DNA of 64,000 nt from Candidatus Bathyarchaeia archaeon (GCA_049512935.1 JBEKWR010000003.1:96001-160000); one strand, 5' to 3'; counted from the stretch's first letter, positions 10,600 through 53,519 are shown. The notes: generated from the letters alone by a model not told the origin. Numbers and translations are program-made.

Positions 10600-10872
10600 T
10601 TCATCGCTTCCAGATTGCTGAGAATAAGCAATTTTTTTTTGTAATAGTACATGAAAAGGTAAAGATGCACATATAATTCTTTTCCTAAAAAAGGACTATC
10701 TACCGAAAAACGTGTTTGAGCAGTCCAAAACCAAACGAATTATTTACGGTCAAGATCAAGTTTTGTGGCTAATTGCCTTAGAAACATCGTCTATCTGCCC
10801 TTTAGACTTTTATACTAGGATTTCTGTAGTGGTGCGGTGTGGTTCCATTGAATTTAAAGGAGGATCAAACCA

Positions 10873-12997: not shown

Positions 12998-12999
12998 AC

Positions 13000-14249: not shown

Positions 14250-15687
14250 AGAAGAAAAAGACAGCAAGCAAATCGTAATCAGCCCCATCACCAGAATAGA
14301 GGGGCACGCTCAAGTATCCATCTGCCTAAACAACGATGATTCCGTCAAAGAAGCAAGGTTCCAGGTTGTTGACTTCAGAGGCTTCGAAAAATTCACTGAA
14401 GGGCGACCTTTCTACGAGATGCCCAGCATAACGTCCCGAGCCTGCGGAATCTGCCCAGTGAGCCACCTGCTTGCTTCTGCCAAAGCTTGCGACGCCATCG
14501 TCGGAGTTAGCCCGCCACCCGCCGCCATAAAACTGCGCCGCTTAATGCACATGGGACAGATGATTCAGTCGCACGCATTGAACTTCTATTATCTCTCTGC
14601 GCCTGACCTGATGCTTGGCTTCGACTCTGACCCAGCGGCAAGAAACGTTTTCGGGCTTATAGAGAAGGATCCGAAGCTGGCGTTGCAGGGTGTTAAGCTT
14701 CGAAAGTTCGGTCAAGAAATAATCGAGAAGATCGCTGGCAAGCGGGTACATTCAAGCGAGTGGATTCTTCCAGGCGGAGCCAAATGGCCTCTGAGCAGGG
14801 AAAAAGCGGATTATTTGAAGTGTAATTTGCCTGAGGCGCTTGACGGTGCGGAAAAGACGCTTGCACTCTACAAGGAGTGGCTGAAGAACTTTGATGAGGA
14901 AGTGGAGAACTTCGGGAATTTCCCAAGCTACTACATGGGTCTGGTAACTCCGACGGGTGGGCTTGAACACTACGACGGCACGTTGACCATTATGGACAAG
15001 GACGGCAAAGTCGTTGCGCAGTGCGTTGACCCGACAACTTACAGCGACTTCATAGGTGAAGCTGTTGAACCCTACTCGTTCATGAAGTTCCCGTACTTCA
15101 AAGCGGTCGGGTACCCAGACGGTTTCTATCGTGTCGGACCCTTAGCGCGAATGAACGTTGCGTCACACTGCGGCACGCCTCTTGCAGACTTGGAGCTTAA
15201 GGAGTTCAAGAAGTTGGGCAGGAACGGCGTTGTCCAAAGCACCTTCCATTACCACTACGCGCGGCTGATTGAGTTGCTGTTCTGCGTTGAAAAGGCGAAG
15301 GAGCTGCTGGAAGACCCAGAGATTCTCTCCGAGCACGTTACGTCGAAGGCTTTGGTGAACCATTACGAGGGCGTCGGCGTGGCTGAGGCGCCAAGAGGCA
15401 CCCTTATTCATCATTACAAGGTCGACAAGGAAGGCATGATAACTTGGAACAACATGATCATCGCGACGGAGCACAACAACATCGCCTACAACAGGGCGGT
15501 AACTCAGGTTGCAAAGAAGTACGTGAAGGCGAAGACGCTTGAGGAAGGCATGCTTAACCGCGTTGAAGCCGTAATCCGCGCTTTCGACCCGTGCCTGAGC
15601 TGCGCGACCCACGCGGTCGGTCAGATGCCGCTGGACATAAAACTGTTCGACGCCGACGGCAAGCTGGTTGACCGCAAGGTCAGGTAA
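14242..15687 (+). CDS. hoxH: Group 3d [NiFe]-hydrogenase large subunit
   Basis: [45 protein letters not shown]. Confidence 0.92.
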
Positions 15688-16608: not shown

Positions 16609-17113
16609 ACCATAATTTCCCATATTTCCCGATGCCAAGAGGAGCCATCATAAAGAATTCTGAATGCACAATCCACATCATGTTCAAAGGCAGATGGACA
16701 CAGAAGTTCCGAAGGGAAGCGGATGGCTGAAAAGAATACAGCCAGAACGGCACAGTTCGCCCATGCACCGCGGAACAGTTCATCTCCCCATATCCTTCCT
16801 CCCTTGGCTGGAATTTAAGGACCAGACGTCACGGTCAAAGCCGCGCACGATTCAAAAACCAAGTCGTAGATATGTGGTGCGACCTATATAACGAGAAAAA
16901 ATTACTTCAAAACGTCCCCTTTTCTTTCTGAGCGATTGTGTTTACGTTGCAGAAGATTGTTTCAAACCCGCTCTTTTTGTTGTAATGTCTCCATTCTCCA
17001 CGCTTCTATTTTTGCCCTGTTGACCTTTCTTAGGAATTTTTTAATCAGTACGTATTTTGCGTTAAACCCCAAATTATTTATAGGTGTTACAAAGCGTTAT
17101 AACATGGAGAACC

Positions 17114-17551
17114 ATGTCTGTAAACATGACGTGTAAAGATTTCATTTTGGCAACTGTTCTCAATTCTGGAGGCACTTTTGAATCAGCCACAAAATTGCAG
17201 AAATTAGCTTTTCTTTCAATCTATGAAAATGGAATGGAATGTTTCGCTGAATTCCATTGGCATTATTACGGGCCATTCTCCAGAGAGTTGGAAGATGCAA
17301 TAGAAGACTTGAAGCGAGAAGAATTGTTGGTTGAGCAATCATTAAACCGAACCAGTTACTCTGGAAACGAGTACACAGTAAAAAAGCTCAGTCTTACACC
17401 TAGGGGAAAGGCCGTTGCCAGTATTATAATAACTGAAATGAGCGCAAAAAACAAGGCAGCTCTAGATGATACGATGGATGAATATGGCAGTAAGCCCTTA
17501 AGCAAGATACTTGAGTATGTATACAATGCATATAATCCAGAAGATCTGTAG
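17114..17551 (+). CDS. Panacea/SocA (DUF4065)/YwgA-like protein
   Basis: TKLQKLAFL and FHWHYYGPFS motifs, LTPRG wing, ILEYVY; AT-rich. Confidence 0.75.
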   Translation: MSVNMTCKDFILATVLNSGGTFESATKLQKLAFLSIYENGMECFAEFHWHYYGPFSRELEDAIEDLKREELLVEQSLNRTSYSGNEYTVKKLSLTPRGKAVASIIITEMSAKNKAALDDTMDEYGSKPLSKILEYVYNAYNPEDL

Positions 17552-17563
17552 GCGGGGATTTTT

Positions 17564-18130
17564 GTGCAACTAATTGAACTGCAGGGTTTGCTTCAAGACT
17601 ACTCCTTGCATTACTTTGTCAGCACGTCCAGGGTCCTTGAGGTAGACGAGAAGCGACTAATTTGCGACACTGAAAAATCATTGACCTCTGAAGTAAGAAA
17701 TTATTTGTCGAATTTGACTGACTTAATAACCCATACACATGAATTTGTCAGCGAGAATGCTCTAAGTGTGCGTTCTTACCTATCAAGACTAATAGGAACT
17801 GCTGAATCGCTAAAAACATTGGTGCAACAATGCGAAGATACGTCAAATGTTTTTGAAAGTGAGCTAAAATGGGTTAAAGCCTTGGCTGTTCGAGGAATGA
17901 TTACGATATTGAATAATATCGTTCAAGAACTATCAATTGTAAGAAACCAATTAAAGAATTCGCGACTTGTGAGGAAAGCCAGAGATAAGGTTTGCATGAT
18001 TATCTGGGAAAAAATCCCACAAATATTTAACATTTTATCCATAATGATTGGAATCGAGATGGGCCAGTCTTCGCCATCTGAGATCGTTGATGCGATAGGC
18101 AATGGTCTTGTTATTTCCGAGATAACTTAG
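17564..18130 (+). CDS. Hypothetical helical protein
   Basis: 188-aa ORF tightly packed between neighbours; amphipathic helical pattern. Confidence 0.7.
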   Translation: MQLIELQGLLQDYSLHYFVSTSRVLEVDEKRLICDTEKSLTSEVRNYLSNLTDLITHTHEFVSENALSVRSYLSRLIGTAESLKTLVQQCEDTSNVFESELKWVKALAVRGMITILNNIVQELSIVRNQLKNSRLVRKARDKVCMIIWEKIPQIFNILSIMIGIEMGQSSPSEIVDAIGNGLVISEIT

Positions 18131-18140
18131 AGGCAAATAG

Positions 18141-18929
18141 ATGACCAATGAGCTGAAATTCGTTCCTGACTCCCAAATTATCTATCCTAGCATTTTCTTG
18201 GCTTCAAGTACGAAAATCAGCTTCCGTGCTTGTCAATATAGGGATTGCTTTAATATTTTAAAAGAGCATTACAACTATGTAATTTTACCCGCAAGCAAAA
18301 GTGATTTCAGCACCCTTATCCTAAAGAAATTTCGCAGATTTCTTGAAATTGTCGAAAATGAAATCTCAAAAGCTAGACAAAATAAGTCTACGGAAATAGA
18401 GTTTTACAAAAAGACCTACGGCCTGTTGAAAAGTTTAGATGCTTTCGGTAAAAGTTTAGGCGATTTGCTTCTATTCTGGGATGCTAACAAAGAAATCTTT
18501 TGGTCATTCGTTTCTTTAGATTACGTTCTAACGCAAACCAGAATGACAAACATGACGCTTGAAAAAATGGCCGAGTTTTCCAAAATATGTAGAGGTCATG
18601 AGGAACAGTTCAGCGAAGAAGAGGCAAGCTTGAGTCAAGGTCTTTACCTTGTAATAAAAGAAGCCAGAGATAAAAAGTTAGTAACTAGCTTTGCCAATGA
18701 CGCCGACTTGTTGATTCTTGCGGACTGTTTTGTTTACAAAAATATGCGATTCTTTGAAGGCTTCATGTATTTGGTTACAGGGGATGATGGCTTACACAGA
18801 ATTGCTGAAGAAATTGTGAAAAAGCCAAAAACCATTTTCCCCGATGATTTTACGGATACAGACAGATACGTGGGCTTTGAGCCATTAAAACCTGATTTAT
18901 TCCTTACTCGATTCAAAAAGCCGAAATAG
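18141..18929 (+). CDS. Putative PIN-like domain protein with large insertion
   Basis: FVPDSQII, DADLLILAD and LVTGDDGL match PIN acidic-residue spacing. Confidence 0.6.
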   Translation: MTNELKFVPDSQIIYPSIFLASSTKISFRACQYRDCFNILKEHYNYVILPASKSDFSTLILKKFRRFLEIVENEISKARQNKSTEIEFYKKTYGLLKSLDAFGKSLGDLLLFWDANKEIFWSFVSLDYVLTQTRMTNMTLEKMAEFSKICRGHEEQFSEEEASLSQGLYLVIKEARDKKLVTSFANDADLLILADCFVYKNMRFFEGFMYLVTGDDGLHRIAEEIVKKPKTIFPDDFTDTDRYVGFEPLKPDLFLTRFKKPK

Positions 18930-18993
18930 CTGTTTATGTCTGTTGGTTAGACACAAACTGAGTTTTTTGTTCAACATCCCCCTACTTATGGGA

Positions 18994-20289
18994 TTACGAC
19001 GTTTCTTGACGCAGTGTTTCTCTACGGCTCTGTGTCACAGCAATGGCAATAGAAAGCACAGCGAGGAACGGGGGCAGGATTACTAGCACTGGAAACTCTG
19101 GAACAAGAGTTGAAGTTGCCTGATTTGTCTCATTCGTTGTGGCGTACATTAAGACGGCGGTGTAGCGTGCGCCCGAGGCTGTGCGGTAGCTGATGTGTGG
19201 GTTGCCGCTGGCGTCTAATGCTAGCCAGCAGGGTCCATTGGCTGAAGTGTTTGAGCTTATGGTTTGAATGTTCCACGCGCTGCCTGAATAGGAGGCATAC
19301 ATGGGAACTCCGTCTGAATTGATGTAGCAGAAGTGGGGGTTACCATGCGAGTCTAAAACCAACTGGCCGACTGGATTGTCATCTCCTAAGCTGACCTTTG
19401 AAGCCACGGTCTGCGAAATCCAAACAGTACCGTTGAAACTGGCATAAAGTATTGTGCTAAGAGTGGTTGAGTTTTGGTAAGGCTGCGTGTAAATGAAGTG
19501 CGGATAGCCCTTAGAATCGACAACCACGTTTCCGAGATTAGCTGATGAGGGAGGCAACGGAATAGTTTGGGTATTCCAACTTGAGTTTTGGTATTTTGCA
19601 AGCTTGATAGCGCTGGAATTGGACGTTAAGCTATACATTATGTACGGCGTATTGTTTGAGCCCAACGCGAAAGAAAACGTTGAAAAACTGTCGTTCATGT
19701 TACTGTATATGGTTTGGGTAGTCCAGCTTGTCCCTGTCCAGCTTGCATAATCCAACGCGCTGCCTAACCAAGTTACACCATATTGCAATTCAACGCCAGT
19801 AGTGTAAGCGATGTGTGGATTGCCAGATGAATCCAATGCGAGCGCTGCAGAACCTGCGTAAGATATGCCCGTGTTTTGGATGTCCCAGCCATTTCCGTTC
19901 CAACTAGCAATCTTTAAAGGGTCAATTGGAGCCCCAAGAGGGCTTGTATTATACAATATATGTGGGTAACCGTTTGCATCGAAAACAAGACTGAAAACAA
20001 CGAAAACATAACCCGAGCCATCAACAGTTTGGTTGATCCAACCTGAACCGTTACTGCTTGTGTAAATCAAAGAATTTGTGCCAGAGGGAAAATCCATGTA
20101 GGCTATGTGGGTGACATTGTTTGAATCTACTGCAATGGGGCAACCGCCGCCAGCCCACGCATCTTCATCCAAAGTTTGAACGTTCCAAGCCTGTTCAGAC
20201 TTGGCTGAAACCGCCGATGGCAAAACGGCTAACGAAATCAGGAACGAGGCGATAAGAATTGAAGCGTAAGTTTTGCTTCTGTTGCTCAT
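18994..20289 (-). CDS. Secreted beta-propeller repeat surface protein with PEF-type C-terminal sorting motif
   Basis: Signal peptide; repeated ALDSxGNPHIxY...YASxxGxxW units; VPEFP + TM + RR. Confidence 0.85.
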   Translation of the reverse strand: MSNRSKTYASILIASFLISLAVLPSAVSAKSEQAWNVQTLDEDAWAGGGCPIAVDSNNVTHIAYMDFPSGTNSLIYTSSNGSGWINQTVDGSGYVFVVFSLVFDANGYPHILYNTSPLGAPIDPLKIASWNGNGWDIQNTGISYAGSAALALDSSGNPHIAYTTGVELQYGVTWLGSALDYASWTGTSWTTQTIYSNMNDSFSTFSFALGSNNTPYIMYSLTSNSSAIKLAKYQNSSWNTQTIPLPPSSANLGNVVVDSKGYPHFIYTQPYQNSTTLSTILYASFNGTVWISQTVASKVSLGDDNPVGQLVLDSHGNPHFCYINSDGVPMYASYSGSAWNIQTISSNTSANGPCWLALDASGNPHISYRTASGARYTAVLMYATTNETNQATSTLVPEFPVLVILPPFLAVLSIAIAVTQSRRETLRQETS

Positions 20290-24059: not shown

Positions 24060-24620
24060 ATGACTGAGACAGCTGTGGTAAGTCCTTCAGGCAAAGAACC
24101 GATCAAAGCGTCTGAGCTAGACCCCAAGTTCAAGTACGAACTGCTCAAGATGCATGGAAGCGAAAAAATCCTCAAATGCTTCCAGTGTGGAACATGCACC
24201 TCTGACTGTCCCGTAGCAAGGTACAGCGACAGTTACCGCCCGAGAACCCTCATCCACATGGCTCAACTCGGCTTGAAAGACCGAGTGCTTAAAAGCGACA
24301 CTTTATGGCTTTGTGCGGCGTGCTTCACCTGCACTGACCGTTGCCCCCAAGATGTCGAAGTGGCAAGCGTAATTCGCGTTTTCAGAAACTTAGCCGTCGA
24401 AAACGGCTGCATACCCCAAGTCTTCAAAGATCAAACCGCAAGCCTGCTTGAATCAGGCTACGCCTACAAGATTCCCGATTTAAGAATAAAAAAACGCGAA
24501 TCCCAAGGGCTTCCGCCCCTGCCGAAAGGCAACTGCGAAAACGTCAAGAAGGCGCTTAAAGGCGTGAAATTTATAGAATCCGTCCAGAAACCCGCAGGAG
24601 GACAGCCCAATGGGCAATAA
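24060..24620 (+). CDS. hdrC: Heterodisulfide reductase subunit C
   Basis: CFQCGTCTSDCP, LWLCAACFTCTDRCP. Confidence 0.93.
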   Translation: MTETAVVSPSGKEPIKASELDPKFKYELLKMHGSEKILKCFQCGTCTSDCPVARYSDSYRPRTLIHMAQLGLKDRVLKSDTLWLCAACFTCTDRCPQDVEVASVIRVFRNLAVENGCIPQVFKDQTASLLESGYAYKIPDLRIKKRESQGLPPLPKGNCENVKKALKGVKFIESVQKPAGGQPNGQ

Positions 24621-25503
24621 GTTCCTGCTTTTCCTCGGCTGCGCCATCCCTTACCGCGTTTCAGCCTACGAGATTTCCGCTCGGAAAGTTCTGGCTAAGC
24701 TCGGCGTTGAGCTGGTTGAGATGCCTGAGTTCAACTGCTGCGGTTTACCTTTCGACCCAGTCAGTCATGAAACCATGCTTGTTTTGGCGGCGAAAAACTT
24801 GGCGCTGGCGGAACGGGAAGGACTCAACATTCTCACGCTTTGCCCAGGCTGCGCTGGCTCACTCAAGAAAACTAACAAGATCCTCAAAGAAGACAAAGCT
24901 CTGAAAGAGGAAATTAACAGTCACCTGAGAGAGGTCGGGTTGGAGTTCAAAGGAACCGTTGAGGCAAAGCATCTTTTGCAGTTTCTGAAGGAAGATGTCG
25001 GCGTGGAAAAAATCAAGGCGTCCGTCACCAGACCGCTCAGCATGCTTAAGGTTGCTGAACACAACGGCTGCCACATTCTGAGGCCTAAAGAGTACATCGG
25101 CTTTGACGACCCAGAGGACCCGCAGACACTAAAAATGCTTATCGAAGCAACTGGAGCAACCTGCCTCGACTACATCGACGAAACCGAATGCTGCGGAGCC
25201 CCAAGCGTAGGAGTCAGCGACAAAATCGCCCTGCAGCTCGCAAGAGACAAGCTTAACCACGTTAAAATGGTTGAAGCGCAAGCGCTAATCACAATCTGCC
25301 CATTCTGCCACATAATGTACGACACAAACGAGCTAAGAATAGAGAAAACGTTTAATGAAACCTATGGCATTCCCATACTCCACTACCCACAATTACTCGG
25401 CTTAGCAATGGGGTTAACCCCTGAAGAGTTAGCCTTCGGCGAACTCCGAGTAAACGCATCAAAAATAATAAAGCAAGTAACCGAGTGTGTGAACAAACCA
25501 TGA
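24610..25503 (+). CDS. hdrB: Heterodisulfide reductase subunit B
   Basis: Two CCG domains (FNCCG...CPGC; HNGCH...ECCG...CPFC), HYPQLLGLAMG. Confidence 0.93.
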   Translation: MGNKFLLFLGCAIPYRVSAYEISARKVLAKLGVELVEMPEFNCCGLPFDPVSHETMLVLAAKNLALAEREGLNILTLCPGCAGSLKKTNKILKEDKALKEEINSHLREVGLEFKGTVEAKHLLQFLKEDVGVEKIKASVTRPLSMLKVAEHNGCHILRPKEYIGFDDPEDPQTLKMLIEATGATCLDYIDETECCGAPSVGVSDKIALQLARDKLNHVKMVEAQALITICPFCHIMYDTNELRIEKTFNETYGIPILHYPQLLGLAMGLTPEELAFGELRVNASKIIKQVTECVNKP

Positions 25504-26489
25504 GCAAAAGCAAGTTAAAAATAGCCTTTTACTGGGCTGCAAGCTGCGGCGGCTGCGAGATAGCCGTCTTAGACATAAACGAGAAAATCCTTGACGTAGT
25601 GCAAATAGCCGACGTGGTTTTCTGGCCAGTAGCCTTAGACATCAAGTACAAAGATGTTGAGGAGATGGCTGACAAGTACATTGACATAACATTCTTTAAC
25701 GGTTCAATACGCAACAGCGAACAGGAACATATGGCTAAGCTGCTGAGGCAAAAATCCAAAACCTTGGTCGCCTTCGGCTCATGCGCCCACCAAGGAAGCG
25801 TACCTGGACTGGCAAACCTCAACGACAAACAAGAGATCTTCGACCAAGTCTACATAAAAGATTTGTCAAACGTGAACCCGCAGGCGGTTGAGCCTCAGAC
25901 TGTAACCCACGTTAAAGAAGGCACACTTAAAATCCCAGAGTTCTACGACACAGTAAAAACTTTGGCGCAGACAGTCGACGTAGACTATTACCTGCCAGGC
26001 TGCCCACCGCCGGTTAAACTGATCGCGGGCGCAATAGACGCCATAGCAAGCGGCACACTGCCGCCCAAAGGCTCAGTGCTCGCGCCCCTCAAAGCCGTGT
26101 GTGACGAGTGCCCAAGAAAACGAGAAAACAAGAAAATCGGCAAAATCTACCGCGTCTACGAGAAAACCCCAGAGCCAGAAAAGTGCCTGCTTGAACAAGG
26201 CATCCTCTGCATGGGACTTGCAACCAGAAGCGGCTGCGGCGCCCAATGCTTAAACGTTGACATGCCCTGCACAGGCTGCGGCGGACCAGCCCCGAACGTG
26301 CCCGACCAGGGAGCGGCGATGATTTCCGCTTTGGCTTCGATTCTCGGTTACGACGGTGAACCGGGCAAAACCACGTACACCGAAAAAGAGGTTGAGGAAC
26401 TGCTGAGCCAGGTGAAGGACACTGTTGGCACCTTCTACATGTACAGTTTACCAGCATCTATCCTGAAACGAAAGGTGATTAAAAAATGA
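25500..26489 (+). CDS. mvhG: Group 3c hydrogenase small subunit
   Basis: SCGGCE, GSCA, PGCPP, CDECP, CLLEQGILCMG, CTGCGG. Confidence 0.92.
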   Translation: MSKSKLKIAFYWAASCGGCEIAVLDINEKILDVVQIADVVFWPVALDIKYKDVEEMADKYIDITFFNGSIRNSEQEHMAKLLRQKSKTLVAFGSCAHQGSVPGLANLNDKQEIFDQVYIKDLSNVNPQAVEPQTVTHVKEGTLKIPEFYDTVKTLAQTVDVDYYLPGCPPPVKLIAGAIDAIASGTLPPKGSVLAPLKAVCDECPRKRENKKIGKIYRVYEKTPEPEKCLLEQGILCMGLATRSGCGAQCLNVDMPCTGCGGPAPNVPDQGAAMISALASILGYDGEPGKTTYTEKEVEELLSQVKDTVGTFYMYSLPASILKRKVIKK

Positions 26490-27940
26490 AAGAAATAGTA
26501 ATAGACCCGATCACGCGTCTTGAAGGACACGGAAACGTATCCATATTCCTAAACGACCAGGGCGAAGTAGAAAACGCCTACCTCAAAGTTCCTGAGCTGC
26601 GAGGATTCGAGAAGTTCTGCATCGGCAGAAAAGCCGAGCTTATGCCGCAGTTAACCACGAGAATCTGCGGTGTCTGCCCAGTGGCGCACCACTTCGCGGC
26701 AACAAAAGCCTTAGACGCGGCATTCAACGTTGAACCGCCCTCAGCTGCAAAGAAGCTTCGGGAGCTAATGTACAGCGCCTACTACATCTACGACCACACA
26801 CTGCACTTCTACTACCTCGGCGGACCAGACTTCATAGTTGGACCAGACGCGCCGCCGGAAAAACGCAACATCCTAGGCGTCATCGAAAAAGTCGGGATGC
26901 CAGTTGCGAAAGAAGTCATAAAGCATCGGGCTTACGGGCAAAAAATGACCGAAATCATCGGCGGAAAAGCAACCCACCCCGTCTGCGGATTGCCAGGCGG
27001 AATCAGCAAGCCTCTTAGTGAAGAGAACAGGCAAGAAATTGAGAAAATGGCGACCTCATGCGTTAGCTTCGCCCAGTTTACCCTTGATATTTTCCACAAA
27101 ATCGTTTTAGGCAACACCAAGTACGTTGACCTGATCTTGAGCCAAGCCTACACCATGCCAACCTACTACATGGGCACAGTTGACGAGAACAACAAGGTCA
27201 ACTTCTACGACGGCAAAATCCGCGTGGTCGACCCATCAGGCAAAGAATTCGTCAAGTTCGAAGCAAAAGACTACCTAAACCACATCGGCGAACACGTCGA
27301 GGAATGGACGTACAGCAAGTTCCCGTACCTCAAAGCCGTCGGCTGGAAAGGACAAGTTCCAGGCAAAGACAGCGGCATCTACCGTGTCGGTCCACTGGCG
27401 CGACTGAACGCTTCAGACGGAATGGCAACACCGTTGGCGCAGGCAGAATACGAGGTCATGTACAAGACACTTGGCGGCAAACCGGTCCACAGCACCTTGG
27501 CTTTCCATTGGGCACGCTTAATCGAGCTGCTCTACGCTACGGAAAGAACGATGGAGCTTGTTAAGGACCCAGAAATCACCAGCACAAACGTCCGCAACAA
27601 GCCAGGAGAACCAGGCGAAGGCGTGGGCATAACCGAGGCGGCACGCGGCACACTCATTCACCACTACGTCCTCGACAAGGACGCTCTCGTCAAAGACGTA
27701 AACCTCATCGTCGCCACAACCAACAACTACCCAGCAATCTGCATGAGCATACGCGACGCAGCTAAAGGCTTAATCCACGGCGGCAAAGTCGACCAAGGCA
27801 TACTTAACATGGTTGAGATGGCTTTCAGAGCCTACGACCCGTGCTTCGGATGCGCAACACACAACGCAATCGGGCAAATGCCACTGACCGTTGAAGTCTA
27901 CAACGCCGACAAAAAGCTAATCAGCTCAGTAAGCCGATAA
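26486..27940 (+). CDS. mvhA: Group 3c [NiFe]-hydrogenase large subunit
   Basis: TRLEGHG, ELRGFEKF, RICGVCPVAH, RAYDPCFGCATH. Confidence 0.93.
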   Translation: MKEIVIDPITRLEGHGNVSIFLNDQGEVENAYLKVPELRGFEKFCIGRKAELMPQLTTRICGVCPVAHHFAATKALDAAFNVEPPSAAKKLRELMYSAYYIYDHTLHFYYLGGPDFIVGPDAPPEKRNILGVIEKVGMPVAKEVIKHRAYGQKMTEIIGGKATHPVCGLPGGISKPLSEENRQEIEKMATSCVSFAQFTLDIFHKIVLGNTKYVDLILSQAYTMPTYYMGTVDENNKVNFYDGKIRVVDPSGKEFVKFEAKDYLNHIGEHVEEWTYSKFPYLKAVGWKGQVPGKDSGIYRVGPLARLNASDGMATPLAQAEYEVMYKTLGGKPVHSTLAFHWARLIELLYATERTMELVKDPEITSTNVRNKPGEPGEGVGITEAARGTLIHHYVLDKDALVKDVNLIVATTNNYPAICMSIRDAAKGLIHGGKVDQGILNMVEMAFRAYDPCFGCATHNAIGQMPLTVEVYNADKKLISSVSR

Positions 27941-45224: not shown

Positions 45225-46721
45225 ATGGGTGCACGTTCACGAAACAAACAAAGAAGGCAGGAAACGCTCTCTAGCGAGACGAAAATAATCGTTATCGGCT
45301 TAGTGGTCGCCATAATCGGGTCAGTGATAGCGAGCTCCTACCAGAAGGCGACGCTTACAAACTACGCTGGCTTCGGCATGCTGCTCGCCGGAATATCCGT
45401 TCTCATCTTCGGCACGTGCGCCACGGCTTGCGCAACGGTTAACGACCGCTTCGCCCAGTTTCCCGCGAAAAAAGCGGGCAAACCAAGAATGCTGGCTCTG
45501 AGCATATGGACTATCGGAATCGGCTTAATCCTCAGCATCATCGGCTCCATACTGAGCAGCAACTACGCCAAAAACTCATTCATGAATGTCGACGGATTCA
45601 GGATGCTTTTGGTTGGCATATGTTTTTTCGTTCTCGGAATATTCGGGACGCTTTTAGGCACTTTGCAGGCTAACTTGAACAGGAACAGGCGCCAAGCAGG
45701 TTTGCGGGGTGCCTGCCCAAGGTCTCTGTCCTCCAGCATACTGTCCATCGGCGTCGGGCTGGCCCTGATTATCGTGGGCTCAATTGTGGCTGGTTCCGCC
45801 GCGAAGGAAACAATCACGAACTACACGGGTTTTGGAATGCTGTTGGTAGGCATAGCCACCTTGACTCTGGGAATGTCAGGAACCGCCGTGACAATCGTCA
45901 AAAGCATCTTGGACTTGAACAAAGAGGATAGCGATGAAGGCAGGCCTGTGCTGGGCAGCATCTGGGCAATCGGCATAGGCGTAATGCTCCTTATCATCGG
46001 CTCCTTGATTGCTGGCTCCTACGCCAAAACAACCACGATGAACTACTCGGGCTTCGGCCTGATGCTGTCAGGTACAGGTATCTTCGTGTACGGACTTTTC
46101 GAAACCGCGCGTTTCTCAGCCATGGGCTACCTGAGCGGCAGATGGGCTGGAAACCGCGAAAAAAGCGACAGCGAACCCAGAGCCAGAAACTTCTGGGGAA
46201 ACATTGTGAAATCAACCGCCGTGCTCAACCTTGCAGGGGTGATGGTTGCTATGGGACTGCTTTTCTTCAGCCTCTGGCAACTTGACCTTATCGTGAGTGG
46301 ACCAGTATGGTGGCAGTCGCCGACGAATCCTTACGGCGCAGGATGGAGTTGGCCTGGGCCTGGTGCCTACGCGAAAGACCGCTTCCAATGCTTCCTGTGG
46401 GTAACCACCGTCGGACAGGCATACGATACCCTGTTCATGCTGATCTTCATCTCATTCATAATCCTGTTTGCAAGCGCATTCTTCTGGCCGCGCTCAAGAG
46501 GAAACCTCGATTTGGCTCCTAAACCCAAGTCCCGCAGCACAACAAGAAATCCCAAGACCACGGCGCGAAGAAGCAACGCACAGAAAAGTCAGCCCACAGC
46601 CACTGAATCCACGGACGCTCCTCCAGAAAAACCTGCCGAATCGCCTGTTGTTTCCCAAGAGGAAACGCCGCAATCTCCTGTCTATGCTCAAGAAGACGAT
46701 GGCGCCTTGGGTGGGACTTGA
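45225..46721 (+). CDS. Polytopic membrane protein with four helical-hairpin repeats
   Basis: 4x IG...IIGS...K...NYxGFGMLLxG; Trp-rich final loop; disordered tail. Confidence 0.8.
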   Translation: MGARSRNKQRRQETLSSETKIIVIGLVVAIIGSVIASSYQKATLTNYAGFGMLLAGISVLIFGTCATACATVNDRFAQFPAKKAGKPRMLALSIWTIGIGLILSIIGSILSSNYAKNSFMNVDGFRMLLVGICFFVLGIFGTLLGTLQANLNRNRRQAGLRGACPRSLSSSILSIGVGLALIIVGSIVAGSAAKETITNYTGFGMLLVGIATLTLGMSGTAVTIVKSILDLNKEDSDEGRPVLGSIWAIGIGVMLLIIGSLIAGSYAKTTTMNYSGFGLMLSGTGIFVYGLFETARFSAMGYLSGRWAGNREKSDSEPRARNFWGNIVKSTAVLNLAGVMVAMGLLFFSLWQLDLIVSGPVWWQSPTNPYGAGWSWPGPGAYAKDRFQCFLWVTTVGQAYDTLFMLIFISFIILFASAFFWPRSRGNLDLAPKPKSRSTTRNPKTTARRSNAQKSQPTATESTDAPPEKPAESPVVSQEETPQSPVYAQEDDGALGGT

Positions 46722-46725
46722 ACCT
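46700..46725 (-). repeat. Degenerate tRNA 3'-end fragment (array boundary 1)
   Basis: Minus strand GGTTCAAGTCCCACCCAAGGCGCCA; 15-bp core identical to tRNA-Leu 49450-49464. Confidence 0.7.
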
Positions 46726-46811
46726 ATAAAAGCCATCGGCTCGCAGACAGGTTTTTTACTACGAAATTGTAGTAATTCCTTATTAGTGGGAAATGCTAAT
46801 AAATACTGAGA

Positions 46812-47072
46812 ATGAGACAGATGGCTTCAGTAACGGTCACAAGGCATTCACAAGTCACAATACCCAAAGAAATACGTGAAGAAGTGGGCATAACGGAAGG
46901 AGATAAGCTGAAAATGAGCGTAGTGGAAGGCAACAAGATAGTGATTGAAAAAGCTAACCCAGACGCGTGGAAAGATTGCACAGACTTTTTGCCTGAGGAC
47001 TTCGAAAAAGTGCTAGCATCTCTACGCTCCGACTCAACCAACAGATTCAAGCGCCTAGGGCTGGTTCCCTGA
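46812..47072 (+). CDS. vapB: AbrB/MazE-type antitoxin
   Basis: QVTIPKEIREEVGITEGD. Confidence 0.88.
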   Translation: MRQMASVTVTRHSQVTIPKEIREEVGITEGDKLKMSVVEGNKIVIEKANPDAWKDCTDFLPEDFEKVLASLRSDSTNRFKRLGLVP

Positions 47073-47073
47073 A

Positions 47074-47538
47074 TTGCCAGAAAAAAAGAAAGCGGCTGCA
47101 AAAGAACTGAAAACTGTATTCGTTGACACCTCGATAATTGTGGATGTCGACAGGGGAAAAGAGGACGTAATAGAGCTTTGTAAAACATTAACGAGCACCA
47201 ATAGCGCTTTTATAAGCACCGTAAGCGTTTCCGAAATATTGACTGGGGCATATCTGAGAAAAGACTACAAGGCCGCCGTAAAGAAAGCGGAAAAGGTGCT
47301 TGGTCAATTTCGCTGGGTCACATTAAACGGTGAGGCAGCAAAGCTTGTTGCTGAACTGAATGCGTATCTGCTCTCAAAAGGGCAACCGATAGAGTACCAA
47401 GATGTGGCAATTGCCGCTTCCTTTCTTCTGGAGTGCTGCGATGTGATGCTGACCGAAAATAAAGACCATTTTGAGAGGCTTCCTAACCTGAAAGGCAAAG
47501 TAATGACTCCCAAAGAGTTTCGCCAAGAATTCTATTAA
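47074..47538 (+). CDS. vapC: PIN-domain toxin
   Basis: FVDTSII, SVSE, DVAIAA, TENKDHF. Confidence 0.9.
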   Translation: MPEKKKAAAKELKTVFVDTSIIVDVDRGKEDVIELCKTLTSTNSAFISTVSVSEILTGAYLRKDYKAAVKKAEKVLGQFRWVTLNGEAAKLVAELNAYLLSKGQPIEYQDVAIAASFLLECCDVMLTENKDHFERLPNLKGKVMTPKEFRQEFY

Positions 47539-47605
47539 TGGTAACCTCCTTTTTTGTTGCTTTAACTCAAAAATTAGTAACTTTGATTTTACTAAGGTTA
47601 CTCAG

Positions 47606-47630
47606 TAGCGCCCAGGTGGGACTTGAACCT
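47606..47630 (-). repeat. Degenerate tRNA 3'-end fragment (array boundary 2)
   Basis: Minus strand GGTTCAAGTCCCACCTGGGCGCTA; same 15-bp core. Confidence 0.7.
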
Positions 47631-48022
47631 AAAATCGGCAGAAATATCAGCCACATTTCCCTTTTTTAATCTAAAGTGAATGTTAGAACAGTTTCCTAAA
47701 CAAAGTCAAGTCTTTTCTCTTCAAACCGACAAATGAATATAAATCCCTGAAAACGGAATAGCTAAGATATTAGCCACCCAGATTTTTATTAACAACCCGT
47801 TGAATGCTTTTTACCGTTGCTTCCATTCCTTTTTTCCTTTGTTTTTTGTCTGTCCTTTTACGTCGCTTTTCGGTTTGTTTTTAGTTTTGTTTTTTATTTT
47901 GAACCCTCCTTACTCATCATTCAACTATTCAATTGTCCTCCACGCTTATTCGGTTTGCCTCTCTCGAACTATAAATAGTGCACATTGTAAATTTTAAAAC
48001 CGCCAAAGGACCCTAATTCTAT

Positions 48023-48127
48023 CTAGCCTATTTTAATTGCAATCGGCTTCTCGTTTTCTTCAACTTGTTTTTCCATCGCTTTTCTTGAAATGGTCATATC
48101 TGCTTGATCAAAGACTACAACAATCAT
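48023..48127 (-). pseudogene. Possible truncated PIN toxin remnant (34 aa, MIVVVFD...)
   Basis: Starts 14 bp after the AbrB stop with a PIN-like first strand ending in Asp, then diverges. Confidence 0.35.
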
Positions 48128-48141
48128 TGCAATTTCAAGCC

Positions 48142-48441
48142 CTATTTCTTTTTAGCCCTTGCCGCTTTCTCTTTTCTGTATTTTTGTATTTCCTCTTCTA
48201 TGTCATCTTGGGTTAACTCGCCGTATTTTGCGATTCTTTCATCAACTCGCCTGTATATGGCTTCAAGCTCTTTTGACAAGTCTGGTTCTTCAAATTTTTT
48301 CAGTATTACGGAATTGTTGTACTCGTAAACGAGAAATTTTGTTTTCGGTTTCAAGCCCATTCTTGACCTTATTTTTGCAGGTATGACAACTTGGCCTTTT
48401 TCGCTGAGAATCGTGAGTTCGGCTTTTTCATTCTGACCCAT
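48142..48441 (-). CDS. AbrB/MazE-type antitoxin without an intact toxin
   Basis: SEKGQVVIPAKIRSRMGL; tail DIEEEIQKYRKEK. Confidence 0.88.
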   Translation of the reverse strand: MGQNEKAELTILSEKGQVVIPAKIRSRMGLKPKTKFLVYEYNNSVILKKFEEPDLSKELEAIYRRVDERIAKYGELTQDDIEEEIQKYRKEKAARAKKK

Positions 48442-48587
48442 TTGCAGCCACCGAATGTTATCTTACTTTCTTACCTAAAGAACATATCTCCTCTGCAAAT
48501 CATCAACACTCTGACCATCAATAATGTGCACTAAATTCCGATTTATGGAAAGTATTGGCCGTTTGAAAAAAATAACCTCGTATTTAG

Positions 48588-48660
48588 TGGTGCCGGGGGT
48601 GGGACTTGAACCCACGAAGGCCTGCGCCAGAGGATCTTAAGTCCTCCTCCATATCTTAGG
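48588..48660 (-). repeat. tRNA-Leu(UAA) 3' exon plus 10 nt of intron (array boundary 3)
   Basis: 73-bp direct repeat of 49440-49512 with 2 mismatches (48593, 48651); no 5' exon. Confidence 0.92.
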
Positions 48661-48663
48661 CAC

Positions 48664-49086
48664 TCACTGAGTCTGATTTTTTTGGCGATTTTGAGCAATC
48701 TCGTCAAGCGTTAGGGTTTTGATATTTGGGGCAATCTTCTTTGTCAGACGCAGATCCTCAGTTACCAAAATCGACGCTTTCGACTTGGCAAAATAAGTAT
48801 AGGACGCATCGTAGAAAGTAATTCCAAATTGCCCTGAAGTTTCCAAGATTTCTTCTTCCTTGGGAACTATCTGATGGATTTCCATTGCGTTTAGAGCGTG
48901 TTTGATTGCGTTCATTAGCGATCGGGCTTCCTCTTTGGAGATTTTTGCTTGCAACAAGTAGTCTTTCCAGACTATGTTTCCGAGTTCATATCTTGCGATT
49001 TCTAACGTGCCGTTTCCTGTTAGAAGGTCAATATTGTTTTCCTTAATGGCCCTGATAATCGCTGAGGAATCAAAGAGATACCTCAT
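48664..49086 (-). CDS. vapC: PIN-domain toxin
   Basis: YLFDSSA, ELGN, ITFYDASY, LVTED. Confidence 0.9.
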   Translation of the reverse strand: MRYLFDSSAIIRAIKENNIDLLTGNGTLEIARYELGNIVWKDYLLQAKISKEEARSLMNAIKHALNAMEIHQIVPKEEEILETSGQFGITFYDASYTYFAKSKASILVTEDLRLTKKIAPNIKTLTLDEIAQNRQKNQTQ

Positions 49087-49316
49087 CGGCTTTCCCGATC
49101 TTCCCTTATGCTTCTTACTATTTCTTCCATGCTGACTTTGTCGAGTATCGGCTTTAGCTTGGTTATTTCTTCTTTTAGCTCTTCGATTTCCTTTCTCTTA
49201 ACCTCATCCTCTATTGCTTTTCGTAGAAGCTTGGACGGCTTGATTTTGAGCTTTATCATCTTCTCTTTGAGTGGCTTGGGAATTTTCGTTGATACCGTTA
49301 CGCATTCACTGGTCAA
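49083..49316 (-). CDS. vapB: RHH-type VapB antitoxin
   Basis: TVSTKIP...LLRKAIEDEV...IREDRESR; ATGA overlap with vapC. Confidence 0.85.
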   Translation of the reverse strand: MTSECVTVSTKIPKPLKEKMIKLKIKPSKLLRKAIEDEVKRKEIEELKEEITKLKPILDKVSMEEIVRSIREDRESR

Positions 49317-49439
49317 TTTCTCACCGAGAAGTAGTAATAAAAAGTAGTAGAAAAGGTTTGCTTAAACTGTTTTACCAAAATGGCGACCCACAACGCAAGC
49401 GACAAACTGCACAGAAGGTCGTTTTTATGTTGGCGTTTT

Positions 49440-49560
49440 TGGTGGCGGGGGTGGGACTTGAACCCACGAAGGCCTGCGCCAGAGGATCTTAAGTCCTCCT
49501 CCCTATCTTAGGTGAAGTTTTTTCTGGCCACCTATTTAGACCTGGCTCGGATACCCCGCC
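49440..49560 (-). tRNA. tRNA-Leu(UAA) with 33-nt BHB intron at position 22/23 (intron 49503-49535) and encoded CCA
   Basis: Acceptor GGCGGGG/CCCCGCC, anticodon arm GAGGA-CTTAAGA-TCCTC, long variable arm, T arm GTGGG-TTCAAGT-CCCAC; BHB GTCT/AGAT with AAA and AGG bulges and TAGGTG/CACCTA helix. Confidence 0.93.
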
Positions 49561-49943
49561 ACCAGCACCGATACTTCACGGCGCGGTATTGTTTAAGTTT
49601 TATGCATAAGGCACCTTGGACCCAGAGCTGGCTGTTTCTTTGCACTGGCAGTGAACAAGTTGCACGGTTTTTTGCGTCGTGCATAAAGATAAGGCGGATT
49701 CTTCGATGGATTTGGACCCACAACTTGCTGGTAACATCGCCAATTCTTCCTGCGCAGCCGCTTTCTCTTTTTTTTAAATAATTTACGGCATTCCGCATCA
49801 GCCCATTACCCTTAAACCCTCGTCATACATCAAAACCTCGACCCGTTGCTGAATTGAAGAATATGGTCAATAACATAATCATACCAAACTTTTCTTGAGT
49901 CTGCAAATGGCATTGAAAAAAATAAAAAAAGGCGAGGTGGTGT

Positions 49944-51863
49944 CTAATAGTAGTATTGGAGCAATACGGTTGTGTCTCCTACTGCCCACAGATTTCCGTT
50001 GCCGTCCACGAATCCAAGAGACGCAGACATTCCCATTAGCATTGCTTCACCATATAAGGGGTCGTAAGCATACTGATCTGCGCTTAGAGGATATACACCA
50101 AGAGGCAAAGAGATTGTTAAATAGCCAGTATTTGGATCTGTGACTCCCACCCAATTATTGTTTATGTAAACATCGGTAGAAACTGGATAATAGCTTGGGT
50201 CATACGCCCAAAAAGTAATGGAGTATGTCGGTATATATTTGTAGTATGCGGTTATGCTTTCACTCCCTACGATTGGTATGTCTACAGAGTTTCCGTAGTA
50301 ATTGCTGCCGTCGAAAAAGCAACTGAAAGCTCCTCCTACATCTGAATCAGGCGCGTAGAATAATGGATCAGGATCTAGCAAATTAACAGTGTTGCCGCTT
50401 GTAACCCAGTTGCCATCCACTGCGATTGGGATGCCACTAACATAACTCCCGGTGGACTCATCATAAGCGAGTATAGTCACACTCGGATCACCGCTTGCCC
50501 AAACTGCGCCTATATACAATGATACTCCGCGGTCGGGATTATACCCTGCAACAGCGAGGTATTTGAAATCAGCGTAGTAACCAATCGGGATCCACTGCGC
50601 GTTAGAAGGGGAAACTTCAATAGGGCTATTGATTTGGTACCAAGTATTGTCATCCATTGAAACGAACACGTAAAGATCGCTGGGGTATGTCGAATCTGAA
50701 CAGCCATATACATAGATGTTTCCGCCTGCAACTCCACTCATCTGTCCTACTATATTACCGCCGTCTCCGGCACTTTCTCCATATATGTGTGCGAAACTGC
50801 CATCGGGTTTTTTTGTGGCTAAGTCATCCGGGTTACTAACGTAACCATTACCGTATGGTGCAGAACTAACTTCACTGGAAACATAGAAATATTGTTGACT
50901 AAGCATTGACCAATAGTAATTACCGTTGCCTGAACCAACTTTTGTTTCGATGCCACTAGGTGCACTTCTTTGATTAGAGGGACCACGATAACAACCCGTT
51001 GCGTTTGTATTAAGCGTTGTCTCGACATATGGGCAATTATCCACCGTAATTCCCGTGTCCAAATTCCCTGTCTCAACACAGCTTGCAGGAGAATACTCAA
51101 CGTCATTAAAAAGCAAACTTATGCCCGGCGGTGTGATTTCATTAAAGGAATGAGTGGACCAACAATCTTGCGGATTATTCAAGTCTTGGATCCAAAAAGT
51201 CACTTGAGGTGTTCCATCAACCATTGCCGCTGAGAAATTACATTCATAATAGTCGCCAATATGGGGCATTATATCATCGTCAATAGGCGTGTTATAGGTG
51301 CCAACGCCATAGAAATCTATAGCGCTAATACAAAATGACACTTCGCCGCCTGGCATAATCTATGTAAAATTGATACCACACGTAGCCCACGCCTGGTGTA
51401 CCGAAATCTATGTTCACAGGCTCATAGTAAACATAACCATCTCCAAGGTTACCGAACGTGTTTGGCTCTACCTGAAATGTTGGATACATATCTGCCATAT
51501 TGTTTTGAGAATTAGCAAAATAAGTTACGTCCCACGTGACGTTAGCTCCACTATCCTGGTCTTCTTGGGATACCAATTGATTAGTCCACTTATTAGAGGA
51601 ACTCGACGTTATGTTGGCAGGTGAAACGGGTGCCGTAGGTATATGATTGGTGAATTAACTTTGATTATTTGGGACGAGCCGCCAATGCTCGGCGGAGAGA
51701 GCGGAATGTTTGCAGTTGGGTTAGCCGACGTTTGTGGTGTTGTATCCGCGTTGATGTTTTGTGGCAGAGCTTTTACATTTTTTGTTGATATTGCAAAGGC
51801 GCTAGAACAAAGAATCATTAGCAGAATTGTTGCAACCAATAGCTTTGGTCCTTTTTTTGTCAT
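49944..51863 (-). pseudogene. Large secreted protein gene broken by two frameshifts (ORFs 51609-51863, 51325-51576, 49944-51356)
   Basis: Signal peptide only in the first piece; coding-like reading continues across shifts near 51640 and 51357. Confidence 0.7.
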
Positions 51864-52156
51864 TTTCTTTTACCTCCCGGGTTTTAAGGAAAGTTGCTTC
51901 TTTCCCGTATTGGCTATTTAGCGGTTGTTGCTTAAATGATTTTAGTTTTTCTTCAATCAATAGAATACACAAAAAAAAAGAATAACTTTGGAAAATAGGG
52001 TTAAATTGCGACAAGATTTTGCGCAAAAATCAACAAAATGTTAATTTTGGTCAAAAAATAATCAAATCGCTAAGCTAAAAATTATAAATAAACACATGAA
52101 ATTAGAGAAAATAAGGTTATTTTAATCTCCTAAGCTCTTAGGCAATCAGGCCGCCG

Positions 52157-52687
52157 TTAAGCTGCGGGGATACCTTCCAGATACCTGAAGATTAAGCTAT
52201 AGCGGTCAACGTCGCGGCTGCTTGTGGCCATGTAGATGGCCAGAGATGTGGTTTGACCGTCGTTCAACTCGACCATCCAATAACCAAAAGGCTCACCGGC
52301 CGGATAGTATAAGTTTGAATTAATCCGAGCGCCGTTTTTATCGTAAAGATCAGCGTACAAAATGAAGAATACCCTCGAGCCGTTAAACTGAGGCTGAATA
52401 ATGTTCGGAGGCGGCTGCTGGAGTGTGTAGTCGCTTCTGACAGTTACGTTTATCATGAAGACAGCTGTTCCCCGATAGGTGCCGTAGTATGGTTTTGCCG
52501 ATATTAGGTAGATGCTGCTGTTTCCTATGTAGCCGGGTGCTGCAGGTTCAAGAACCGCCGTTGAGGGGCTAACGCTGTTCGCTGGCTTCATGGCTAACTG
52601 TTGGAAAACGACGACGCCGATTGTAACGGCTATGATTACGATAAGTAACGCTCCAAGAGTTCGACTAAATTTCAAGACATACCACAT
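52157..52687 (-). CDS. N-terminally anchored exported protein
   Basis: N-terminal TM; beta-rich; NxS/T sequons. Confidence 0.75.
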   Translation of the reverse strand: MWYVLKFSRTLGALLIVIIAVTIGVVVFQQLAMKPANSVSPSTAVLEPAAPGYIGNSSIYLISAKPYYGTYRGTAVFMINVTVRSDYTLQQPPPNIIQPQFNGSRVFFILYADLYDKNGARINSNLYYPAGEPFGYWMVELNDGQTTSLAIYMATSSRDVDRYSLIFRYLEGIPAA

Positions 52688-53000
52688 TTACTTGTTGTAT
52701 ATCAGTGCTAATATATTTATGTGAAAAATTCCCCTTTCTCATAGTTACGGTGTGGTGTTGTTCAAGTTTTTTGCATGAGCGGTTTCTTTGCGTAGGTTTT
52801 TTTTCTGACCCTGGGATGGGATGGGTTTTTCTTGCGGGTTCGGGTCTGCGGATTTCTTTTCGTTTCTTGCGCCTTGTAGCCCATGCCGCTGGAGGAGTTA
52901 CCGCTGACCGGGAACCGTCGAGTTTGGTATAAGCCGATTTATACCAGACTTTTCCACAATTTTCCTCGTTTTCGAGCAGAAAAGCAAAATTTGAAGAGGC

Positions 53001-53104
53001 TGATTTACGCTCTAAAACAAAAAAACAATCAGAGTCAGCCCCTAAGCAGACCCAGTCTACTGAAGGAGGGGGCTACTTTTTACATCAAAATCCCAACGTA
53101 AAAA
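53001..53104 (-). repeat. Degenerate dispersed intergenic element, copy 2
   Basis: Reverse complement aligns with 15720-15825. Confidence 0.5.
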
Positions 53105-53519
53105 GCATCAACTCTCACGCCGTTGTTTCTAGCATTGGGCTACAACATAACGTTATATTCCATGTTGAGTCACTATTTTTTGCCAGTTGGGGAACACGCT
53201 TCGCGTAAGCATCAATTTGCTCTGGCAAAAGTTAGATGTTATCTGAGATAACGTCAAAGAAACATTTTGGCAATGCGGAAACTTATGATGCAAAAAAACG
53301 TGGGGTTTTGACCCAACTGGCACTTCAAATTTTCTCGCAGCTGCGGATGCAGAGTGCAGATGCTTCATCCCCCTACCGGGTAACCTTCCCACATAACAAA
53401 CCAAAACAAAGCTCAAACCAGCCATTTTTCTCCGCAAAAAACAACCTCAAGCACGGAACTTTCTGCTACGCTTATATCTCCCGACTGCGGTATGTTGTTT
53501 CTGAGGAGATGACTCAAGG

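Follow-up and report, generated by a model that had tools for sequence, protein, structure and literature searches.

How does a row of toxin-antitoxin (TA) units, each of less than a kilobase and none with an integrase, come to lie at the 3' end of a tRNA gene? The question is raised by 64,000 nt of Candidatus Bathyarchaeia archaeon DNA (GCA_049512935.1, JBEKWR010000003.1:96001-160000; this whole stretch is hereafter the window, and positions are counted from its first base), in which a tRNA-Leu(UAA) gene is followed by three units bounded by partial copies of the tRNA end. We consider it probable that the 3' end of this gene is an attachment site (attB) for several tyrosine-integrase families, at which accretion of elements and their decay leave TA modules resembling cis-mobilizable elements (CIMEs).

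The window contains exactly four occurrences of the 15-mer GGTGGGACTTGAACC, all of them on the plus strand (46710, 47615, 48598 and 49450, at spacings of 905, 983 and 852 bp), as an initial annotation made from the sequence alone had reported. With up to two mismatches allowed there are four matches against 0.07 expected, and none of 100 shuffled sequences reached four; a repeat search of the window places all four copies in register. The copy nearest the tRNA, copy C (48588–48660, plus strand), likewise agrees with its first description, repeating 49440–49512 over 73 nt with 97% identity and two mismatches. It is the distal boundary of cassette 3, and Rfam with an E-value threshold recognizes 48599–48661 as a partial tRNA (model positions 10–63). 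Copy B (47605–47667, plus strand), the distal boundary of unit 2, joins a 15-mer core (47615–47629) to a conserved non-tRNA arm, the "type-2" motif. Copy A (46700–46734, plus strand; core 46710–46724) is the most distal and the most decayed. Over 35 nt it is 80% identical to copy C, 77% to the tRNA and 63% to copy B, the last value corresponding to agreement at 7 of 20 flanking positions, so the flank resemblance first proposed for the two distal copies does not hold. GC content drops from about 0.51 to 0.40 across 47–49 kb. Chance or assembly artefact as the source of the pattern is ruled out, as it recurs in many independent assemblies, some labelled chromosomes.

The tRNA-Leu(UAA) gene occupies 49440–49560 on the minus strand, encodes its CCA and is the presumed attachment site. 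ARAGORN calls no tRNA in the window and Rfam at its gathering score reports nothing there, because an intron of about 32 nt interrupts the D-loop. At a relaxed E-value threshold Rfam matches both ends of a tRNA-like gene at these coordinates, and after intervals were deleted in silico ARAGORN calls tRNA-Leu(taa), a permissive test that does not fix the splice points. The tRNA reads GGCGGGG..., has the anticodon loop CUUAAGA (UAA, Leu) and ends ...CCCCGCC-A-CCA. Among relatives, 39 of the 40 loci listed have the same gene with the insert at the same place, the exception (L031) having the 3' exon alone at that position. The intron helix co-varies (AGGTG...CACCT, AGGCG...TGCCT, GGGC...GCCC), and a CTTAAAC box about 30 nt upstream of the gene is conserved. 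The Rfam ends, the ARAGORN call after deletion and the gene's presence in relatives together show that the tRNA proposed at first is real. If a D-loop of the expected length and the helix that co-varies are taken as guides, with splice points called by no tool, the 5' exon would span about 49560–49536, the intron about 49535–49504 and the 3' exon 49503–49440; by this placement the 73-nt repeat comprises the 3' exon and 9 nt of intron. Standard tRNA finders miss a tRNA with a D-loop intron, and such hotspots therefore go unannotated.

For comparison we used at least 119 pieces of up to 8 kb from relatives, found in one scan of genome contigs with a pattern made of the T-arm and anticodon arm. 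Among the 80 entries listed, 76 are named Bathyarchaeota, Bathyarchaeia or Bathycorpusculum and four have broader archaeal names. The contig of the window is not one of the 119 loci, and only 79 of the 119 pieces show at least 1.5 kb downstream of the tRNA. The gene order GT87 – mem498 – tRNA-Leu – Cbf5 – methyltransferase is kept among relatives, where mem498 (45225–46721 in the window, plus strand) is a host membrane-protein gene and the ancestral downstream neighbor of the tRNA. It has 61–64% amino acid identity by tblastn in L070, L068 and L037, in the order GT87-mem498-tRNA. In L070 an empty site is directly visible: the tRNA 3' end lies a few tens of bases past the mem498 stop codon, with nothing between. 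In the window the last codons of mem498 run into copy A, which occupies the position of the L070 tRNA end and aligns with it as well as with the well-kept distal copy of L068. Because it lies at this ancestral position beside mem498, copy A is the oldest junction. L068 has mem498 adjoining its distal copy, and the same contig gives L063, a possibly contiguous piece with tRNA-Leu and then Cbf5.

Two further features of this neighborhood are worth recording. At 46465–46721, mem498 has a low-complexity C-terminal extension of about 85 aa past the protein's end in L070, L045 and L037; the extension is common to L068 (61% amino acid identity) and runs into copy A. On the other side of the tRNA, about 3.5 kb of low-GC DNA (49610–53120) lie between the tRNA promoter and a conserved spacer before Cbf5. 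Open reading frames (ORFs) there (470, 83, 84 and 176 aa) have no Pfam match and no homologue in the 119 loci, and the tRNA–Cbf5 gap measures 4289 bp in the window against 525–948 bp in 23 of 24 relatives. The stretch therefore resembles another insertion, this one 5' of the tRNA and with no obvious repeats.

Partial copies of the tRNA end are common downstream of this gene in relatives. When the 119 loci were searched sensitively for the 73-nt segment, same-strand partial copies numbered 29 downstream of the tRNA and two upstream, in 456,767 and 434,615 bp of sequence, respectively. One of the two (L057) is a partial duplicate, 45 nt long and some 85 nt away from the match, and in the other (L068) the reference match is itself the distal copy abutting mem498. 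Ten opposite-strand matches of 20–22 nt upstream probably mark other tRNA genes whose T-arm is similar; among the ARAGORN calls in the loci are 16 tRNA-Arg(CCT) and 8 tRNA-Thr(UGU). When 15-mer matches with up to three mismatches are included, at least 24 of the 119 loci have extra downstream copies (one to four each), spaced about 0.58 to 3.1 kb apart.

The DNA between such copies was surveyed by clustering 387 ORFs and by Pfam scans. TA genes stand behind the tRNA in 20 of the 119 loci and belong to AbrB-PIN (two forms), VapB-PIN, AbrB-PIN_3, VapB-like-PIN2, HicA, and HEPN with nucleotidyltransferase families. Other cargo bounded by attachment-site (att) copies includes a restriction-modification pair of an Eco57I-type methylase and a XamI-type endonuclease (L109), a TIR-domain protein with a Usp protein (L066), a glyoxalase, a cupin, a methyltransferase, a radical-SAM protein, and a major facilitator superfamily transporter with an HTH_10 protein. 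Pfam scans of 127 further ORFs within 1.6 kb downstream in the remaining loci returned host genes or nothing, adding no TA gene or integrase.

A tyrosine integrase (PF00589) or a fragment of one lies downstream of this tRNA in 30 of the 119 loci: 14 have at least 250 aa aligned, and 16 have fragments of 30–206 aa that adjoin the tRNA or an att copy. Integrases thus target tRNA-Leu and are often lost by deletion. Type 1 integrases (436–444 aa) have an N-terminal zinc ribbon and end about 60–250 nt from the tRNA. Those of type 2 (about 305 aa) lie on the strand of the tRNA with a reading frame that begins inside its T-arm, at a GVG-type codon (GTG) in L005, L057, L076 and L025, and a third type is found in L010 and L058. 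The ~305-aa proteins align only with residues ~150–430 of the 436–444-aa ones, about 140 N-terminal residues being absent, and may be the C-terminal halves of SSV-type genes split on integration; no N-terminal half was seen within the 8-kb pieces, and the far ends lie outside them. In the window itself there is no integrase or recombinase, with no PF00589 among the 61 ORFs (27 and 34) scanned with Pfam, and tblastn with five integrases of relatives matched only their tRNA-encoded first 9–11 residues. The absence of an integrase, stressed in the initial annotation, therefore holds for the window and fails for the relatives. With integrases in 30 of the 119 loci, the objection that annotation had itself named, that the units might be eroded integrase-bearing elements in relatives, is in part what we find.

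Taken to its extreme, that objection would make the units nothing but the eroded ends of larger integrase elements, vertically inherited, never moved as small cassettes and now immobile. Such a history accommodates the 16 loci with integrase fragments beside the tRNA or an att copy, the degenerate state of copies A and B, and the mosaic composition of unit 2, which has a 27-codon gene fragment and an orphan antitoxin. It also accommodates L087 and L012, where long integrase genes have no second att copy within 7.8 and 5.5 kb, so that intact elements must be larger than the cassettes. The distribution of the units among genomes nonetheless makes it unlikely. AbrB_a-PIN_a, one form of AbrB-PIN unit, is 90.5–95.8% identical among five species-level genomes (L003, L018, L046, L092 and L099), and in the sole Cbf5 comparison for this cassette (L003/L046) the cassette is 92.1% identical and Cbf5 78.2%. 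Its homology starts at the acceptor end of its own att copy in L018, L046 and L099; in L092 and L003 the edge is at or beyond the start of the 8-kb piece. The same AbrB-PIN cassette stands by the tRNA in L023, L003 and L099 and is distal in the window, L073, L018 and L046. Unit content is also at odds with the Cbf5 tree, which groups the window with L038, L002 and L003 (support 100/100): L038 has a full integrase element, L002 a type-2 unit, L003 AbrB_a-PIN_a and the window its array. The initial annotation had pointed to cassette number and order as likely to vary among relatives, and content, number and order all do so, in no agreement with the Cbf5 tree.

The same comparisons support discrete modules added at the tRNA. 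Cassette 1 (46755–47529) is 73–87% identical in DNA to units in L023, L073, L096, L097 and L060, and its match to L073 extends as far as the end of the following att core. Within the window no unit is more distal; the cassette adjoins the tRNA in L023, and is parted from it by other genes in L073, L096, L097 and L060. Cassette 3 with both of its att copies (48596–49470) corresponds to L096:3226–4098 at 84% identity; L096 also has cassette 1, and between its cassette 3 and the tRNA lies a further unit with an integrase fragment. L018:4837–5798 and L099:402–1358 are 90.9% identical over 966 nt from the acceptor end of their own 73-nt att copy. The match ends at the next core, which is the tRNA in L099 and a 26-nt copy of the tRNA end in L018, where an extra 583-bp unit and then the tRNA follow. 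The two loci differ by one unit, precisely inserted at a tRNA-derived core between an older cassette and the tRNA.

In all three pairs where both could be compared, the cassette is more alike than Cbf5: beside L003/L046, these are the window and L023 (89.6% for AbrB and 85.3% for PIN1 versus 78.9%) and the c14 cassette of L037 and L045 (93.2% versus 89.6%). The integrases of L017 and L093 are 98.0% identical, compared with 83.4% for Cbf5. We conclude that some modules have passed between species as whole units.

Two of the three units in the window are compact operons. In cassette 1, an antitoxin of the AbrB/MazE fold (46812–47072, plus strand; PF04014, E 2.3e-13; TIGR01439, E 3.7e-14) is separated by 1 nt from a PIN/VapC toxin gene (47074–47538, plus strand; PF01850, E 5.4e-9), which NCBIfam VapC models match at E 2e-12, under their curated cut-off. 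By tblastn the AbrB protein has 80–92% amino acid identity in L073, L023, L097, L096 and L060, and the PIN protein 78–91% in five loci. Cassette 3 lies on the minus strand, where a VapB-like antitoxin gene of 77 aa (49083–49316) overlaps by 4 nt the gene for a divergent PIN/VapC toxin of 140 aa (48664–49086). The antitoxin matches NCBIfam NF050799 at E 4e-9 with 36.9 bits, below the cut-off of 60. The toxin has no direct Pfam or NCBIfam match of its own, and its family assignment rests on named homologues: of 728 homologues several are named VapC by NCBI, and six of the 120 listed carry PF01850. Alignment to PIN with hhalign gave a probability of 0.8%, and a single-sequence AlphaFold model was poor (mean predicted local distance difference test score, pLDDT, 48). 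In L096 the two proteins are conserved at 94% (VapB-like) and 85% (toxin) amino acid identity. In both cassettes the PIN gene is preceded by a small DNA-binding antitoxin gene, as in VapBC operons, and we predict VapBC-type TA systems. The contents first assigned to these two intervals, AbrB-VapC and VapB-VapC, are thus upheld by PF04014 and PF01850 in the one and by the sub-threshold VapB match and the VapC-named homologues in the other.

The middle interval is different in kind. Its orphan AbrB-type antitoxin (48142–48441, minus strand; PF04014, E 5.2e-7) was correctly recognized at first, and its homologue precedes a PIN_3 toxin in L035 and L081. The neighboring "toxin stub" was rejected, as tblastn with the PIN_3 proteins of L035 and L081 found nothing in the window better than E 0.09. 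In its place are a 27-codon 3' fragment of a 119-aa helix-turn-helix (HTH) gene (48026–48106, minus strand) and a 308-bp segment (47656–47963) like the tRNA-proximal part of an AsnC-like cassette. The HTH fragment is 85% identical by tblastn over residues 91–117 of 119 (E 3.9e-10) and 91–93% by blastn to L021, L068, L073 and L092, where the gene is intact. The 308-bp segment is 73–82% identical by blastn to L024, L052, L075, L102 and L094, and no convincing gene lies within it. With an orphan antitoxin, a gene fragment and a segment of another cassette type, unit 2 is a mosaic of remnants and not one clean TA unit. Cassette 1 is on the plus strand, units 2 and 3 on the minus strand.

The boundaries of the units fall into classes. 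Among the loci, copies retain 73, about 45, about 31 or 26 nt of the tRNA. In those that retain 26 nt, the tRNA part begins in the T-loop region (GGGTTCAAGTCCCACC...), and in front of it stands a conserved non-tRNA arm of about 35 nt (consensus AAAAAGGGnnnnTGCGGGTGAYATCTCCA plus about 9 nt). The junction between the two lies at one fixed T-loop point in more than ten loci. Copy B belongs to this class as a diverged member (nhmmer, 47623–47667, E 1.7e-5), a match that is not independent because copy B was among the 14 sequences used to build the profile. The arm (TGCGGGTGAYATCTCCA...) also occurs with no tRNA part in L046 (3775–3817 and 4683–4729), L062 (583–629) and L005 (4181–4216), and in L046 and L062 it is followed by further shared sequence (TTCAATGCA...). 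As a small RNA or an attC-like hairpin the arm was dropped, since it has no consensus fold (alifold energy -0.16); it matched no Rfam family in the eight loci scanned, where only ordinary tRNAs were found. Our guess is that it is the binding arm of one integrase family. Apart from tRNA-Leu, L049 (about 1985–3444) and L067 (about 3615–7470) have a neighboring tRNA on the opposite strand followed by downstream copies of its own 3' end, some joined to the same arm; such arrays are therefore not limited to tRNA-Leu.

A unit-end family in which a conserved arm sits by a tRNA-derived core and the cargo differs between units invites comparison with a dedicated integron-like system, in which the tRNA end would be the capture site, the cassettes would carry the signals and one specialized recombinase would act on them. 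The recurrence of the arm inside one L046 unit, in steps of 565 and 912 bp and with the last arm lying about 660 bp from the tRNA, points the same way. We regard such a system as very improbable. No integrase occupies a fixed platform position, and the arm profile gives 18 matches at E<0.01 in about 0.95 Mb, 13 of the 14 building sequences included, and only one in the window. The arm has no consensus fold, most att copies, copy C included, have no arm at all, and the cassettes are two-gene operons in either orientation. The integron-like array proposed in the initial annotation is thus not borne out, the boundaries being fragments of a tRNA.

The sequence of copy C bears on how the window's array was assembled. 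Three compensated acceptor stems exist in the clade, GCCGGGG/CCCCGGC in 55 loci, GGCGGGG/CCCCGCC in 26 and GCGGGGG/CCCCCGC in 11, and mixed pairs of the three were not seen. The window tRNA has GGCGGGG/CCCCGCC. Copy C has CCCCGGC, the commonest allele among relatives, which is unable to pair with the window's own 5' exon, and its other mismatch to the tRNA is likewise the commonest state in relatives. Copy C is therefore not a plain in-place duplicate. It could be a donor-derived att, a fossil predating the compensatory change, or an import by homologous recombination.

The last of these origins can be extended to the whole locus: units made by integrases would have been spread and reordered by homologous recombination, with the tRNA, the 26–73-nt att copies and the conserved flanks as arms. 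An imported donor segment would explain the allele of copy C, near-identical repeats flank the cassettes in every genome, and homology between genomes often stops inside those repeats. Against this stand the junctions of different att classes (26, ~31, ~45 and 73 nt), which point to several site-specific systems, the fixed T-loop junction of the type-2 arm in more than ten loci, and the abundance of integrases at the site. On balance, shuffling by homologous recombination as the general explanation seems quite improbable to us.

We therefore favor accretion and decay of integrase-borne elements at the tRNA-Leu(UAA) 3' end. Under this model each integration would rebuild the tRNA, with part of it left duplicated where the insert ends distally. 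Later integrations would reuse the tRNA, or a copy that is still good, and older units would thereby be pushed away from the tRNA while their copies decay. Deletion would strip integrases and other genes, and TA operons would remain because their loss is costly. The outcome in the window would be three integrase-less units bounded by tRNA-end copies, two compact and VapBC-type and one mosaic. We infer that integrases made the window's own junctions, and it is plausible that the units can still be moved by an integrase encoded elsewhere in the genome, acting in trans. Leaving aside its likeness to an integron, the early proposal that the tRNA 3' end is a recombination site where units are added serially, newest nearest the tRNA, is largely right; it agrees with the empty site of L070, with the most decayed copy at the ancestral position, with the insertion that distinguishes L018 from L099, and with L096.

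Several observations weigh against this model. The window encodes no integrase, and where integrase-bearing elements are intact, they extend beyond the 8-kb pieces at their far ends. Copy C has an acceptor allele other than that of the resident tRNA, and copies A and B are too decayed for present use. Unit 2 separates cassettes 1 and 3, whereas in L096 these two adjoin; if growth was strictly newest-nearest, either L096 has lost a unit through recombination between att copies or a unit was inserted at a distal copy. The integrases of L005 and L076 are less alike than Cbf5 (70.6% versus 75.5%), so not every shared element is recent. In four AbrB_a-PIN_a units the att copy is more conserved than the body (2 of 73 versus 73 of 749 variable columns), with marginal significance (Fisher p 0.053, and also p 0.044). 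Finally, excision and present mobility of the units are putative.

A more dynamic process may be envisaged, in which the Bathyarchaeia tRNA 3' end is a capture site for sub-kilobase, recombinase-less att modules moved in trans; we advance this tentatively, as a possibility below even likelihood. It is similarly doubtful, if conceivable, that integrases of co-resident elements capture, stack and excise the modules and pass them, mostly TA and defence genes, between species. If cassette exchange of this kind is real, no smaller site-specific mobile units would be known from archaea, and if the units move in trans, they would show how little DNA uncultured archaea need in order to trade genes for defence and addiction. 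An attB/integrase pair from this locus would also be available to try as a genetic tool in Bathyarchaeia.

Elsewhere in the window, three gene sets for the large and small subunits of [NiFe]-hydrogenase occur within 28 kb (6636–15687 and 24060–27940), with NuoE/F-like and heterodisulfide-reductase-like partners. A low-GC patch (0.37–0.38) at 17000–19000 amid these genes may be another foreign insert; its ORFs (17084–17551, 17564–18130 and 18141–18929) have no Pfam match.

Set beside known systems, cassettes 1 and 3 resemble type II VapBC operons in having a small AbrB or VapB antitoxin gene directly upstream of a PIN gene, with a 1-nt gap or a 4-nt overlap. The toxin of cassette 3 departs from typical VapBC members in diverging too far to be matched directly by Pfam, and toxin and antitoxin activity is predicted for both cassettes. 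The Vibrio superintegron is a long row of small cassettes between recombination sites, rich in TA operons that would stabilize the array. Our locus is likewise a row of small cassettes parted by recombination sites and rich in TA operons. It differs in having no intI by the array, tRNA fragments as boundaries in place of attC hairpins, several att classes, and cassettes that are their own two-gene operons in both orientations; a platform integrase, attC sites and single-gene cassettes in one orientation are all absent from the window.

The closer relatives of the locus are elements that integrate at tRNA genes. As in archaeal SSV- and pNOB8-type elements, the 3' part of the tRNA forms a direct repeat at the far end of the insert (here the 73-nt copy and two core copies), and PF00589 integrases lie at the tRNA in relatives, long in 14 and fragmentary in 16 of the 119 loci, although the window has none. 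In a Thaumarchaeota survey, tyrosine-recombinase elements form arrays by re-use of sites, and the smallest cryptic element named there is 2.6 kb with its integrase included (PMC6563490), compared with 0.85–0.98 kb and no integrase for the units of the window. Two other archaeal studies report, respectively, that no tandem integrations were seen for SSV-type integrases (PMC7253208) and that there are tRNA gene fragments left by integrations of 9–23 kb in Thermococcaceae (PMC9897764). Islands at the single-copy transfer-messenger RNA gene (ssrA) of Dehalococcoides, where the title speaks of common site-specific mobilization, are bacterial (PMC3146451). Neither insertion in tandem at tRNA genes nor remnants that have att boundaries and no integrase are new in themselves. 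The literature searched gave no example of an archaeal tRNA with an array of TA cassettes that lack integrases and measure less than a kilobase, a search that left subscription journals and supplements outside and is not proof of absence; what seems new is that units of 0.6–1 kb with TA or defence genes only recur class-wide at one intron-bearing tRNA and are exchanged between species.

The best parallel is provided by the CIMEs related to ICESt1 and ICESt3 of streptococci. A review of integrative mobilizable elements outlines the path (PMC5704250): an element integrates, it decays until a CIME with both attL and attR is left, and further elements accrete at the att site. Common to both systems, on the same source, are integration at the 3' end of a gene, an integrase-less unit bounded by att sites, further elements integrating alongside, and tandem arrays with shared direct repeats (PMC5704250). 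The Bathyarchaeia locus differs in its archaeal host and intron-containing tRNA target, in its units of 0.6–1 kb with a TA operon only and up to four or five in a row, and in having no conjugation genes in view, mobilization here being putative. Cassettes 1 and 2 keep only degenerate att copies. Cassette 3, with nothing other than its VapB-like and PIN genes between an intact tRNA and a 73-nt copy, has the organization that defines a CIME.

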